From sequence record SRR31156797_6140: a DNA stretch of 49,625 nucleotides. One strand, written 5' to 3'. Of this stretch, positions 23,144 to 29,695 are shown one piece after another (position 1 is the stretch's first letter; every line of letters begins with the position of its first letter). The notes below the pieces were generated by a model. That model was given only the letters and a program-made list of their open reading frames with translations. It was not told where the DNA came from and ran no database searches. Position numbers and translations under genes: made by a program.

Positions 23144-23229
23144 TTACTATGGGCAACATGCTACCTGGCTTTTCTATTGGGGTTCCTCATAACTATAATC
23201 AATTTAAATCATCAAATAGATAGAAAAAC

Positions 23230-23261
23230 AAAAGCTCACTCCAAATAAGGAATGAGCTTTT
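23230..23261 (-). terminator. Terminator downstream of lgt
   Basis: AAAAGCTCACTCC-aaataa-GGAATGAGCTTTT. Confidence 0.75.
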
Positions 23262-23282
23262 AATAAATCATATTTTTTAGCC

Positions 23283-24086
23283 TTATGCTTTATCTTTTAT
23301 CTTAAGCTGATACGAACGGTATATAAAATACAATCCGGCCAGTACAAAAGGAATACTTAACCATTGGCCCATATTTAAGGCCATACCTTCTTCAAACTCT
23401 TCCTGATTTTCTTTTACAAACTCAATAAAGAAACGAGCCAGGAATGTTCCCACTAAAAACACTCCAAAAATTAAACCCTGACGATCCTTTGCTTTAGTTT
23501 TCCAATACATATACATCAGCAATGCAAATAATGAAAGGTAAGATAAGGCCTCATATATCTGCGTAGGATGTTTGGCAACAGTTTCTCCATTTCGGGCAAA
23601 AATAAATCCCCATGGTAAAGTTGTTTCTACTCCGTAAATTTCAGAATTCATTAGGTTACCCATACGAATAAAGAAGGCAGCTAAAGCAGTTGGAATTACC
23701 AATCGATCTAAAATCCAAATGGGTGATTTTTTGGATACCTTTTTAGAGTAAAATATAATGGCAATTACAATTCCCAAAGCACCACCATGACTGGCCAGTC
23801 CACCATGCCACACCATTAATATTTCGCCCGGATGTTCAGCATAATAATCCCACCCGTAGAAAATTACATGTCCTAAACGAGCTCCTACAATGGTAGCGAT
23901 AACCACATACATAAATAGTTTTTCGAGCCAGGGAAGGGGAATCTTTTCTGCTTTAAACATTTTCTCCATCAGGTAATAACCTAACATAAAAGAAATGGCA
24001 AAAAATAATCCGTAATATCTAACAGATAGAGACCATTTTCCAAATATTTCAGGATCTACATTCCAGGTAATAAAATCTAGTACCAT
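23283..24086 (-). CDS. lgt: Prolipoprotein diacylglyceryl transferase
   Basis: RYYG, GARLGHV, GGLASHGG, RMGNLMNSEIYG, HPTQIYE and RFFIEFVK motifs. Confidence 0.96.
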   Translation of the reverse strand: MVLDFITWNVDPEIFGKWSLSVRYYGLFFAISFMLGYYLMEKMFKAEKIPLPWLEKLFMYVVIATIVGARLGHVIFYGWDYYAEHPGEILMVWHGGLASHGGALGIVIAIIFYSKKVSKKSPIWILDRLVIPTALAAFFIRMGNLMNSEIYGVETTLPWGFIFARNGETVAKHPTQIYEALSYLSLFALLMYMYWKTKAKDRQGLIFGVFLVGTFLARFFIEFVKENQEEFEEGMALNMGQWLSIPFVLAGLYFIYRSYQLKIKDKA

Positions 24087-24196: not shown

Positions 24197-27100
24197 TTAT
24201 GCCGGTTGTCCTTTACCATGACATTGCTTGTACTTTTTCCCGCTTCCACATGGACATGGCTCGTTACGTCCTACTTTTTTCTCCACTCTTACCGGTTCTG
24301 CTTTTGGCTTTTCTTTAGCTGGACTCTCACCACCGCCAAAACCATCACGACTTGCTTTCAGTTTACTTAAATCCTGACGCTTACGAACTTCTTCCTGCTT
24401 AATTTGCTCAGGATCCTGAACCGGAATAGTTGCTTTTACCAAAGTAGAAACCACATCGCGATTCGCTTTATCCAACATGCCTTTAAACAATTCAAAGGAC
24501 TCAAATTTATAGATCAATAGCGGATCTTTTTGCTCGTAAGTCGCATTCTGAACGGCAGTTCTTAAATCATCCAATTCACGCAAGTGCTCTTTCCAGGCAT
24601 TATCAATCGTCATTAAGATGATGGATTTCTCCAGTGACTTCACTAATTCAGCACCATTGGTTTCGTAGGCTTTTTTCAAATTAGTGGTAATCTGCATCAT
24701 TCTTTGTCCATCAGTAAACGGAACTACAATATTCTTGTATTGCTCCGACCTGGTTTCGTATACATCCTTTATTACAGGCATAGCTTGAGATGCAATAGTT
24801 TCTGCTTTTCGTTGATAAGCACTCCACACATCTTTGTATAGTTTATCAGCCATTTCTGCAGGATTTCCTTTTAAGAATTCCTGACTTGAAAATGGTGAAG
24901 AAACTGAGAATACACGGATTAGTTCCATCTCAAAACCTTCGAAATCGGCATTCTGATGATGCTCCGAAATCATGCTCTCACATGTATCATAAATAGTATT
25001 CGATAAGTCAACCTGAATTCTCTCACCATATAAAGCATGGCGACGTTTGGTATAGATTACCTCTCGCTGAGAGTTCATTACATCATCATACTCCAGTAAT
25101 CGTTTCCTGATACCGAAGTTGTTTTCTTCCACTTTTTTCTGAGCACGCTCAATAGATTTGGTAATCATGGAGTGTTGAATTACTTCACCATCCTCAACTC
25201 CTAATCTATCCATATATTTTACAATACGATCCGAACCAAACAGACGCATCAGGTTATCTTCTAACGAAACGAAGAATTGTGAACTACCCACATCTCCCTG
25301 ACGACCGGCACGACCTCTTAACTGGCGATCGACACGACGAGACTCATGACGCTCAGTACCTACAATGGCTAAACCTCCTGCCTTCTTTACCTCATCTGAT
25401 AATTTAATATCGGTACCACGACCTGCCATGTTGGTAGCAATAGTTACCACTCCTTTTCCTCCGGCTTCCGCTACAATTTCAGCCTCGCGCTGGTGCATTT
25501 TCGCATTCAGTACGTTATGCTTAATTCCTCTGATCTTAAGCATACGACTTAAAAGTTCTGATATTTCTACAGAAGTGGTACCCAATAATACAGGACGGCC
25601 ATCTTTAACCAATCCAACAACTTCTTCGATTACGGCATTATATTTTTCACGGTTTGTTTTGTAAACCTTATCATCTCTATCATCTCGAGCAATCGGTCTG
25701 TTGGTTGGAATAACCACTACATCCAACTCATATATATCCCAAAACTCACCTGCTTCCGTCTGCGCTGTACCTGTCATACCCGAAAGTTTGTGGTACATTC
25801 TAAAGTAATTCTGCAATGTTACAGTAGCATAGGTTTGCGTAGCAGCTTCTACCTTAACACGTTCTTTGGCTTCGATAGCCTGATGTAAACCATCAGAATA
25901 ACGACGGCCTTCCATAATACGACCTGTTTGCTCATCTACAATTTTAACCTTGTTATCCATTACCACATACTCTGTATCTTTCTCAAACAAAGTATAGGCT
26001 TTTAATAACTGGTTAATGGTATGAACCCTTTCAGATTTTACTCCATAACTCTGTAATAAAGCATCTTTCTTCTCCAGTTTATCCTGATCACTTAAAGTAG
26101 ATTTCTCCAATTCAGCAATCTCAGAACCAATATCCGGCAGTACAAAGAATTGTGGATCATCCGTAGACCCTGTGATTAAATCAATTCCATTTTCGGTAAG
26201 CTCTATAGAGTTGTGTTTTTCATCAATTACAAAGAACAAAGGATCGGTTACTATATGCATATTTTTACTATTCTCCTGCATATAGTAATTTTCTGTTTTT
26301 AGCATGGAAGCTTTTACTCCCGGTTCACTTAAAAACTTAATCAATGGTTTATTACGAGGAAGACCTTTAAAGACTCTGAGCAATAATAAAGCACCTTCTT
26401 CAGCCACCTTTTTATCCTCAGACTTCATCTTCTTTTTGGCGTCCACTAAAATGCCTGAAACCAGTTGGCGCTGTGCCTCAACTAATTTTTCCACCTTTGG
26501 TTTTAGCTCTTCAAAAAGCTGATCATCACCTTTAGGTACCGGTCCTGAAATAATCAAAGGTGTTCTCGCATCATCAATTAATACGGAGTCAACCTCATCG
26601 ACAATGGCATAATTGTGCTTACGTTGCACTAAATCTTCAGGAGAAATAGCCATGTTATCACGCAAGTAATCAAAACCAAACTCATTATTGGTACCAAATG
26701 TAATATCACAATTATAAGCTACTCTACGCTCATTTGAGTTAGGTCGATGCTTATCGATACAATCTACAGATAGTCCGTGGAATTGATATAATGGCCCCAT
26801 CCATTCGGAGTCACGTTTTGCCAGGTAATCATTCACAGTTACCACATGAACACCACGACCTGTTAATGCATTTAAGAAAACAGGCAAAGTAGCCACTAAG
26901 GTTTTACCTTCACCTGTTGCCATCTCAGCAATTTTCCCCTGATGCAAGGCTACACCACCAAACAACTGCACATCGTAATGAATCATTTCCCAGGTAATGG
27001 TATTTCCTCCCGCTTCCCAAGAGTTATGCCAGATGGCCTTGTCGTTTTCAATTTCTACAAAATCATGCGCTGCAGCTAAATCTCTGTCAAATTCCGAAGC

Positions 27101-27499
27101 ACTTACTTCAACCGTTTTGTTTTGCGTAAAACGTCTGGCTGTATCTTTAAGAATGGCAAAAGCTTCAGGCAGAACATCTGCTAAAACTTTTTCCAGCTTT
27201 TCATCAATACCTTTTTCTATTTTATCTACTTCAGCATAGATTTTTTCTCTTTCTGTAATCGCTACAGAAGCATCTTCTGTTTTATCTTTTAGCGCCGCTA
27301 CTTTATCTAAATCCTCTTGAATAAAGGATCTGATTTTATCCTTTAAGGCCAGACTTTTTTCACGAAGCTGGTCGTTTGTTAACTTTTCAATTTCAGGGGA
27401 TACTGATTTTACCAGATCTACAATAGGGTTTAGTTCCTTTAAATCACGATCATATTTACTACCAAAAAATTTGGTAACCAAATTATTAAATATTGCCAT
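24197..27499 (-). CDS. secA: Preprotein translocase ATPase SecA
   Basis: [38 protein letters not shown] and C-terminal [18 protein letters not shown]. Confidence 0.99.
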
Positions 27500-27595
27500 G
27501 CTTATATTAATGATATCAGAGAATATTTACTCTGATCGGTTTTACAAAAAAATAATAAGAATTAACTCTTTACTAAAGAGTTTTAAAAGCGAAGA

Positions 27596-28000
27596 TTACA
27601 CGAACAGCGGACCTGCTCTGCTTTGAATATGAATTCCCTCATAAAAGGAAACATAGCTTTGTTTAGCGTTTATAACTCCCTCTAAGGTGAGTACACATCT
27701 AAAGCAAAACTGCCTGACCGATAGAATTACCGGCACATAATGATTAGAAAAATCTTTGAGTAGAGAATGGTTTCTTCCGGATTCTATTATTTTATGAATC
27801 CTGTTTTTAGGGCTCTTCGAAGGCTTGCTCTTTTTTACTTTTGTAATTGGAGCAGACTTTTCTGAAGAACTAATATCAAACTCAAAACCGTAAGTTCGTA
27901 AAGTTTCAGCATTTAATTCCAATGATCCCACCACGCACGACGACATAGTCACCAGCAGTGTAATCCCAAGAACTTTAAATTTTGCTAAATCTTTCTTCAT
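27596..28000 (-). CDS. secA upstream ORF with signal peptide and C-terminal RAGP; candidate SecM-like translation-arrest peptide
   Basis: Basic N-terminus, hydrophobic stretch with MSSC, ends GIHIQSRAGPLFV; 96 nt upstream of secA on the same strand; own TAnnTTTG promoter. Confidence 0.72.
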   Translation of the reverse strand: MKKDLAKFKVLGITLLVTMSSCVVGSLELNAETLRTYGFEFDISSSEKSAPITKVKKSKPSKSPKNRIHKIIESGRNHSLLKDFSNHYVPVILSVRQFCFRCVLTLEGVINAKQSYVSFYEGIHIQSRAGPLFV

Positions 28001-28020
28001 TTAATTTTTTCTAACGCCCA

Positions 28021-28028
28021 CAAATGTA
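28021..28028 (-). promoter_or_regulatory. Bacteroidota -7 promoter element for uORF-secA-lgt
   Basis: Reverse complement reads TACATTTG, 20 nt before ATG 28000. Confidence 0.65.
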
Positions 28029-28131
28029 ATAAAAAAGACAAAAGATATACATCTTTCCAACAAGAGATAATATGACAATAAAAAAGAGACTCTAAAACAA
28101 CGCTTTAAAGTCTCTCTTCATATTTTCTTTT

Positions 28132-29020: not shown

Positions 29021-29695
29021 TTATGGTTCAATGCCTGTATTTTTCCAGTAAGCATTTTCATCATCATCTTCATCTTCCTCCTCCTCATCAAGCACTGATT
29101 TAGGTCGTTGAGGTCCTTTCTTGCGATAAACCCACGCAAGAAGTATACCAGCCAATCCTCCCCAAAAATGTCCTTCCCACGAATATGGCAAATTCACTTT
29201 TAAAGGAAAAGCACCCCAAACCAAACTTCCATAAAAGAAGATTACCAAAAATGAAATAGCTATTAATCGGATATGTCTTCTGATAATTCCGCTTAAAGCC
29301 AGAAAACCGGCCAAGCCATAAATAACTCCACTGGCACCGATATGCCAGGAATCGCGCGCAGCCAACCATACACCAACTCCGGCAAAAAGATAAATCAGAA
29401 AGAAAACTTTATAAGCGATCTTATTATAGAAATAAAATAATGTTAAAGCCAATACAAACATTGATACCGAATTGGAATACAAATGATCCCAATCGCCATG
29501 TATCAAAGGAGAACAAATAATACCTATTAAGCCCTCTGATTTTAAAGGTCTGACACCAAAACTGGTAAAAGACCATCCTTCCAATGTTTCAACCAATTTG
29601 ACAGTGAATATTATCAGAACAAAAAACGAAGGAAAAATAAGGCTATGAATAAAGCGCCTTTTTTCGATGGGAATATGTGAACCTAAACCTTTCAA
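29021..29695 (-). CDS. Rhomboid family intramembrane serine protease
   Basis: HGDWDHLYSN, GASG and SWEGHFWG motifs. Confidence 0.92.
   Translation of the reverse strand: MKGLGSHIPIEKRRFIHSLIFPSFFVLIIFTVKLVETLEGWSFTSFGVRPLKSEGLIGIICSPLIHGDWDHLYSNSVSMFVLALTLFYFYNKIAYKVFFLIYLFAGVGVWLAARDSWHIGASGVIYGLAGFLALSGIIRRHIRLIAISFLVIFFYGSLVWGAFPLKVNLPYSWEGHFWGGLAGILLAWVYRKKGPQRPKSVLDEEEEDEDDDENAYWKNTGIEP

Follow-up and report, generated by a model that had tools for sequence, protein, structure and literature searches.

In Escherichia coli SecM, the arrest motif is F150xxxxWIxxxxGIRAGP166, and the ribosome stalls on it when Gly occupies the P site and Pro-tRNA the A site (PMC10987492). Previously, Fujiwara et al. 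(2024, Nat Commun 15:2711; PMC10987492) screened 30,175 representative genomes of GTDB r202 for arrest peptides, with RAGP among the query motifs, and grouped the matches by order. One of the groups defined in the main text of that survey, uA_RQH_Bacteroidales, comprises upstream open reading frames (uORFs) of secA that carry RAPP-like motifs and come from the GTDB order Bacteroidales. Here we describe a candidate arrest peptide of this kind. It is encoded by a uORF of 134 amino acids (aa) that precedes secA in a 49,625-nucleotide (nt) stretch of DNA from sequence record SRR31156797_6140 (the window, meaning the whole stretch that was analysed), and it has RAGP close to its C-terminus.

In vitro, two tested members of uA_RQH_Bacteroidales arrest efficiently on Bacillus subtilis ribosomes, and those of E. 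coli are arrested less well (PMC10987492). The motif of one member, uA_RQH_Bacteroidales_2, is R102-A-P-G, and for uA_RQH_Bacteroidales_1 the main text and the preprint of the survey give neither species nor motif. The toeprinted motifs are summarised in the survey as (R/Q/H)(A/G/D)(P/G/S)(P/G), so some tested RQH member has Gly in the third position (PMC10987492). The N-terminal context is described as unrelated between the families of the ApdA, ApdP and ApcA type (PMC12992588, PMC10987492). RAGP swapped into ApdP and ApcA is reported to support arrest, and the same tetrapeptide is listed among those most avoided in bacterial proteomes (PMC12992588).

The uORF of the window occupies 27596-28000 on the minus strand (stop codon included) and has the sequence MKKDLAKFKVLGITLLVTMSSC...SFYEGIHIQSRAGPLFV-stop. 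Its RAGP codons lie at 27619-27608 and are followed by the tail LFV and a stop codon at 27598-27596. The secA gene (24197-27499, minus strand, 1100 aa) begins with an ATG at 27499 on the same strand, which leaves a spacer of 96 nt (27500-27595). A preliminary description of this DNA had reported a 134-aa ORF ending RAGP-LFV-stop at this distance before secA, and all of its coordinates were correct. It had also claimed an export signal, which we likewise recognise by inspection. The N-terminus reads MKKDLAKFK, then VLGITLLVTM, then SSC, and the candidate signal (residues 1-22, 27935-28000, minus strand) consists of a Lys-rich n-region, a hydrophobic core and a lipobox-like ...TMSSC, being of the lipoprotein type in the genus. 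Among 14,657 residues of six-frame ORFs of at least 100 aa in the window, RAGP occurs once, and this occurrence is that of the uORF. Judging from sequence comparisons, the 134-aa uORF is likely to encode a secretion-monitoring arrest peptide of the SecM type that belongs to the RAPP-like ('RQH') class and is an analogue, not a homologue, of SecM.

A Pfam-A scan of the uORF at E <= 1 returned 0 families, and the only NCBIfam match fell below the family cut-off. SecM is represented in Pfam, and the failure of the uORF to match it at E <= 1 fits an independent origin. The suggestion of the preliminary description that a SecM-like arrest peptide arose here independently, with no further similarity to SecM, is thus supported at the level of sequence. 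An AlphaFold2 model built on the genus alignment (A1, described below) has no confident fold (pLDDT 47.7, pTM 0.17). Neither the Pfam scan nor the model gave a sign of another role for the protein.

Conservation of RAGP in the genus and in databases

A whole-genome search found an orthologue of the uORF in all 23 genomes of the genus. Twenty of these 23 loci were inspected (G003, G015 and G023 matched in the search and were left out) and combined with the window into alignment A1, which contains 21 sequences and uses the window as the identity reference. The uORF lies 94-135 nt before secA in all 20 loci. R128, A129, G130 and P131 are invariant in 21/21 sequences, in which identity to the window goes down to 41%, and the reading frame is open at 132-138 aa in every one of them. 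The RAGP core closes the proposed arrest segment (residues 118-131, SFYEGIHIQSRAGP, 27608-27649, minus strand), and G122, six places before Arg128, is the sole other invariant residue in the C-terminal third. The tail behind the motif, which together with the stop codon occupies 27596-27607 (minus strand) in the window, is 3-7 residues long in the genus and has no conserved column; both its sequence and its length vary among the relatives.

The hydrophobic N-terminus is conserved in all 21 sequences, with F8, K9, V10, L11, I13-T18, S21 and C22 invariant. At its C-terminal end the signal has a lipobox-like ...T-[MV]-[ST]-S-C, and the invariant Cys22 is separated from Arg128 by 106 residues. A post-Cys block conserved within the genus (residues 29-40, LNAETLRTYGFE, 27881-27916, minus strand) has the form LNAExLRxYGxE, and its residues N30, A31, E32, L34, R35, Y37, G38 and E40 are invariant in 21/21 sequences. 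The same holds for ESGR at residues 73-76 (about 27773-27784, minus strand).

A search with the single protein against 38 genomes outside the genus gave no convincing match (best E = 0.018). A profile search of 5.8 billion proteins returned 36 relatives, which are named 'hypothetical', 'uncharacterized' or 'Lipoprotein'. RAGP followed by 1-8 residues ends 35 of them, including NCBI-annotated 'hypothetical proteins' of Labilibacter marinus and Saccharicrinis carchari, and the exception is a truncated 94-aa entry. This entry (P0037, Saccharicrinis fermentans DSM 9555) lacks RAGP. Locus L009 of the genus shares its N-terminus over the printed stretch and encodes a full 134-aa protein ending RAGPLSC, and the short entry looks like the product of a frameshift or an assembly error.

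Distribution across the family and the order

Sequence searches stopped at the borders of the genus, and therefore secA was located in other genomes and its upstream region was read. The first 200 aa of SecA were used as the query, which matched in 150 of 151 genomes of the order and in 45 of 46 genomes of the family Marinilabiliaceae. The family sample comprised 40 of 41 matched Marinilabiliaceae genomes from 24 genera other than that of the window. A uORF upstream of secA, 143-212 aa long, with a hydrophobic N-terminus and an ending of [RK]AGP plus 2-7 residues, is present in 32 of these 40 genomes at a distance of 44-417 nt from secA. The motif is RAGP in 31 of them and KAGP in one (G188), the motif Arg stands at residue 138-183, and 19 of the 24 genera carry such a uORF. 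In the other eight genomes, one locus is cut by a contig end and seven have another gene abutting secA.

All 32 family uORFs have a related hydrophobic N-terminus, and the middle of the protein has diverged. Outside the genus, the persistent parts are this N-terminus and [RK]AGP near the end, always before secA. The likeness of the N-termini suggests that the uORFs are one old family with a single origin, whose middle appears to have diverged beyond recognition. The preliminary description had named the loss of RAGP from syntenic orthologues as evidence that would speak against it; the motif and its place 1-8 residues ahead of the stop codon are kept in the genus and in 19/24 other genera of the family, over a diverged middle. 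At the four motif positions, 53 sequences use six Arg codons (and AAA for the Lys of the KAGP variant), four Ala codons, four Gly codons and four Pro codons. This use of all synonymous codons argues for selection on the peptide, not on the RNA.

A lipobox-like Cys is found in 17 of the 32 family members outside the genus and is gone in 15. Its presence differs between close relatives (G214 versus G198, G027 versus G199), which indicates that lipidation is not essential to the uORF family. With 17/32 members having such a Cys, the lipobox was rejected as a defining feature.

Related loci come from Saccharicrinis, Labilibacter, Plebeiibacterium and Marinilabiliaceae, and NCBI files the genus under Marinilabiliales. 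GTDB appears to place the genus within Bacteroidales, and the GTDB-based order used for sampling, with at least 148 families, fits such a merging of orders. From about 150 matched genomes of the order, 80 were sampled, one per family, and two loci were too short. In the resulting 78 genomes, all from other families, secA is never preceded by a uORF of the [RK]AGP or RxPP/RxPG type.

The KAGP variant of G188 (L052) ends ...SSGNKAGPLYA and lies 48 nt before secA; the copy is either in decay or exceptional by nature. In another family of the order, a uORF of 111 aa lies 119 nt before secA at locus L088 (G168); its N-terminus is hydrophobic and its last residues are KIRAPEIE. The RAPx query motifs of the survey include RAPE (PMC10987492), and on this ground the L088 uORF may represent a second, unrelated lineage of secA arrest peptides in the order. 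An 'RSPN' match at L103 was rejected, being the C-terminus of a large truncated enzyme ORF and not a uORF. In 11 of the 80 loci from other families, a highly conserved acidic protein of 73 aa without a signal peptide is encoded upstream of secA on the same strand (L117, L129, L135, L138, L140, L146, L150, L151, L152, L154 and L155). This protein belongs to Pfam DUF2795 (E = 9.5e-17 for L117), and it lies 106-263 nt before secA in ten loci and further out in L152.

Transcription unit and coupling to secA

The preliminary description had assigned the uORF a promoter of its own, and the sequence concerned is present. TACATTTG at 28028-28021 on the minus strand ends 20 nt before the uORF ATG and matches TAnnTTTG, the -7 promoter box consensus of Bacteroidota. 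The box occurs 20-35 nt upstream of the uORF start in 16/19 genus sequences and within the spacer in 1/19, a distribution that argues for co-transcription of the uORF and secA. The gene upstream of the uORF, on the same strand, encodes an M48 peptidase (Pfam PF01435). On its 3' side, a hairpin followed by a U-run (28077-28124, minus strand) has a folding energy of -20.8 kcal/mol (z = -6.65), a stability reached by 0/200 shuffles. This hairpin, absent from the output of the consensus terminator scan, is likely a terminator separating the M48 gene from the uORF unit. Further upstream, a rhomboid-family protein (Pfam PF01694) is encoded at 29021-29695 on the minus strand. In G028 (L071), which has no uORF, the neighbour of secA is a rhomboid-like ORF (likeness by eye, no Pfam scan), suggesting that the segment from the M48 gene to the uORF was lost there.

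On the other side of secA, 110 nt 3' of it, lies lgt, the gene for prolipoprotein diacylglyceryl transferase (23283-24086, minus strand; Pfam PF01790, E = 1.5e-68). No terminator-like site was found between secA and lgt in the window, and a terminator-like hairpin of 14 pairs with a U-run after lgt (23229-23262, minus strand) is the likely end of the unit. From the flanking hairpin-U elements and the lack of a terminator before lgt, the unit looks like promoter, uORF, secA, lgt and terminator, with lgt probably in the same transcript as secA. In 41 of 45 Marinilabiliaceae genomes lgt is directly 3' of secA on the same strand, and in the four misses secA is cut by a contig end. The arrangement is also kept in genomes that lack the uORF (G202, G033, G028 and G190). 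A connection of the lipoprotein-type monitor with lgt is thus far no more than a lead.

For a secretion-monitoring arrest peptide at this locus, the following course can be proposed. A promoter just upstream would drive the uORF and secA, probably together with lgt. Once the ribosome has reached ...S-R128-A-G130 with Pro131-tRNA in the A site, the R-A-G chain would lock the peptidyl-transferase centre in a non-productive state and elongation would stop. By comparison with SecM and the RQH-family toeprints (PMC10987492), the stall is expected when Gly130 (27613-27611) occupies the P site and Pro131 (27610-27608) the A site. With about 106 residues between the signal and the stall, the signal would be outside the ribosome and could engage SecA/SecYEG. 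Up to this point, the scheme draws on comparative evidence and on published work on the same motif. By analogy, we infer that the pull of active translocation would free the arrest, that compromised export would prolong it, and that the long-lived arrested complex would raise the supply of SecA and probably of Lgt.

Several observations weigh against this reading. The published Bacteroidales members stalled weakly on E. coli ribosomes, and Bacteroidota ribosomes lie outside the assays reported in the main text (PMC10987492). KAGP occurs in one genome, though Arg is reported to be irreplaceable in SecM, ApdA and ApdP (PMC12992588). The uORF is dispensable, as it is absent before secA in seven evaluable family genomes. 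Within the genus, the invariant post-Cys block and ESGR exceed what a mere spacer would need. The predicted RNA structure also gives no sign of a switch. In 51 sequences (19 from the genus and 32 from the family, with L001 and L019 dropped as near-duplicates), folding was modelled for the segment that begins 60 nt ahead of the Arg codon and extends 40 nt into secA, either free or with the nucleotides covered by a Gly-stalled ribosome kept unpaired. With the Gly130 footprint masked, the secA start gained more than 0.1 in accessibility in 2/51 sequences and lost more than 0.1 in 1/51, and mean accessibility was 0.51 both free and masked. In the window, no pairing between the stall site and the secA start was predicted, the spacer hairpins (27564-27582 and 27515-27536, minus strand) are local, and the fold from the stall site to the secA start (27470-27650) is unexceptional (z = -1.23). 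Measured from the stop codon to 12 nt past the secA ATG, the 51 spacers show only slightly more structure than shuffles do (mean z = -0.99; 43/51 below 0, 9/51 below -2, 8/51 above 0). An Rfam search at E <= 1 gave three sub-threshold chance matches and no family at threshold.

With a gain in accessibility in 2/51 sequences, SecM-type unmasking of a stem over the secA start was rejected in silico, and, as far as folding models tell, any effect on secA probably does not follow the E. coli scheme. Delivery of the secA-lgt mRNA to the membrane by the arrested, signal-bearing complex is a serious possibility for the coupling, though short of a probable one, and much the same may be said of an arrested ribosome that shields the spacer of the transcript against termination or decay. 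A structural switch missed by the folding models seems unlikely, and that there is no coupling to secA at all we also find improbable.

Each of the two possible couplings can be extended to an explanation of the whole locus. The arrest peptide may mainly place synthesis: the arrested ribosome, its signal peptide exposed, would dock at the membrane together with the secA-lgt mRNA, and SecA and the polytopic Lgt would be synthesised at the translocon without need of an RNA switch. This would agree with the folding models, in which the stall site does not pair with the secA start (accessibility gain in 2/51), with the highly variable spacer length (44-417 nt), which is hard to square with a fixed RNA switch, and with the position of lgt directly 3' of secA in 41/45 family genomes; a localisation role has reportedly been proposed for E. 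coli SecM. However, the secA-lgt order is kept in the four genomes without the uORF, and placement is compatible with an expression-level effect and not exclusive of it. We regard this explanation as tentative. Alternatively, the arrest may act at the RNA level, with the parked ribosome blocking premature termination or RNA decay in the spacer and thereby yielding more full-length secA-lgt mRNA. TnaC and Rho, and the stabilisation of mRNA by stalled ribosomes in erm leaders, are parallels. Hairpin-plus-U elements are present in 16/51 spacers versus 8.1 +/- 2.2 (maximum 13) in shuffles, a mild degree of structure is seen in the spacers (43/51 with z below 0), and the rival model of translational unmasking has no support in folding. 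On the other hand, 35/51 spacers have no terminator-like element by the rule used, and a general intrinsic attenuator was rejected since the element is in just 16/51 sequences. The consensus scan found no terminator in the spacer of the window, whose first hairpin begins 13 nt past the stop codon, beyond the footprint of a ribosome stalled at Gly130. We regard an action at the RNA level as tentative, too.

Two further explanations dispense with arrest. The uORF could encode an ordinary small exported lipoprotein whose mature form makes use of RAGP, for instance in processing, sorting or binding, and whose gene precedes secA through mere synteny. UniRef indeed names one relative 'Lipoprotein', and the Cys, the post-Cys block and ESGR are invariant in the genus. 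Outside the genus, however, just the hydrophobic N-terminus and [RK]AGP persist, always before secA, the Cys is lost in 15/32 family members, close pairs included, and no confident fold is predicted. The motif is, moreover, a proven arrest core that proteomes otherwise avoid, according to the published accounts (PMC10987492, PMC12992588). We consider an ordinary lipoprotein very improbable. Still harder to credit is the view that the ORF is untranslated and owes its conservation to an element in the secA leader that acts as DNA or RNA. AT-rich DNA such as this readily gives rise to short ORFs, which is nothing specific, whereas a frame that stays open at 132-138 aa in 21/21 genus sequences with identity down to 41%, the use of all synonymous codons at RAGP and the lack of an Rfam match above threshold all speak against it.

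Thus, a secretion-monitoring arrest peptide is the reading that we prefer. A more specific form of it, which we offer as a conjecture, is that the Marinilabiliaceae RAGP peptide works without an RNA switch, as a lipoprotein-type monitor that heads the uORF-secA-lgt unit and raises SecA and Lgt by membrane delivery or transcript shielding. If this were true, a single nascent chain would monitor both export and lipidation, the two steps with which lipoprotein biogenesis begins. The phylum Bacteroidota makes little use of Shine-Dalgarno sites, and the locus raises the question of how arrest couples to downstream genes when initiation lacks Shine-Dalgarno pairing.

Comparison with described arrest peptides

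The uORF has all the features by which monitoring substrates were delimited in the main text of the survey (PMC10987492). It is a small unannotated uORF of secA, one of the three genes in scope (secA, secDF and yidC), and has, by inspection, an N-terminal secretion signal or transmembrane segment. Its C-terminal sequence is conserved, with RAGP in 21/21 genus sequences, 35/36 database relatives and 31/40 family genomes, plus one KAGP, and more than 30 residues (here 106) separate the signal from the C-terminal motif. RAGP near the C-terminus, a query motif of the survey, is common to dozens of secA uORFs, as in uA_RQH_Bacteroidales. By definition, the uORF of the window very probably belongs to that published class, as a new member of a kind already known. 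Since annotated proteins of L. marinus and S. carchari carry RAGP, the published pipeline should very probably have picked up the family. The preliminary description had left open whether arrest-peptide surveys already include it: the class of secA uORFs is catalogued and RAGP was queried, whereas the main text names no species of the group (PMC10987492). In the literature, no later work on this uORF family was found beyond PMC10987492 and PMC12992588.

The value of the present analysis is incremental, in that it adds to the published class a well-delimited clade of apparently single origin, found in 19/24 other genera of the family and in 0/78 genomes of other families. New here are the limits of the clade, the evidence for a single origin, the lipobox of the genus, lgt as a partner and the negative result for an RNA switch of the SecM type. 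The clade appears to be a clean case of natural convergent evolution, in which the four-residue stalling core of E. coli stands before the same gene in an otherwise unrelated protein and is kept throughout a marine family of Bacteroidota. It also provides a natural mutational series of contexts around RAGP. The conserved lgt and the genus lipobox are cheap leads for work on lipoprotein export in Bacteroidota.

Several described peptides share part of this design. ApdA, ApdP and ApcA have a C-terminal core of Arg-Ala followed by Pro or Gly and stall at its third residue (PMC12992588, PMC10987492), but they lie upstream of secDF or yidC, come from other phyla and use RAPP or RAPG instead of RAGP. 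B. subtilis YwcI has RAGP itself, at residues 88-91 of 100, stalls with Gly in the P site and loses the stall in the P91A mutant (PMC10987492); it is encoded upstream of sacT, which is not a Sec gene, and is no secretion monitor. The uA_NSP-stop peptides of Sphingobacteriaceae form the other class of secA uORFs that has been described from Bacteroidota. Unlike the uORF described here, they stall at termination on N-S-P-stop, without Arg-Ala-Gly-Pro and without a tail behind the Pro (PMC10987492).

E. coli SecM is the most similar in layout, since it also lies upstream of secA, carries a signal peptide and has the RAGP core a few residues before the stop codon, with a variable tail. It shows no sequence homology to the uORF (0 Pfam families at E <= 1). 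The full FxxxxWIxxxxGIRAGP is absent from the uORF and RAGP alone is shared; the window reads SFYEGIHIQSRAGP, and the invariant residue upstream of the motif is G122. Differences from SecM further include the lipoprotein-type signal in the genus, the lack of a predicted stem between the stall site and the secA start, and a host phylum in which Shine-Dalgarno sites are little used. The closest counterpart is uA_RQH_Bacteroidales. The lipobox, the linkage to lgt and the absent masking stem are not discussed in the consulted text of the survey, in which 'lipoprotein' and 'lipobox' have 0 occurrences (PMC10987492). The main design is the same, as both the published members and the uORF of the window are small unannotated secA uORFs with an N-terminal signal, a RAPP-like C-terminal motif and a gap of more than 30 residues between them. 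On B. subtilis ribosomes, the published members stall when the third residue of the motif occupies the P site (PMC10987492).

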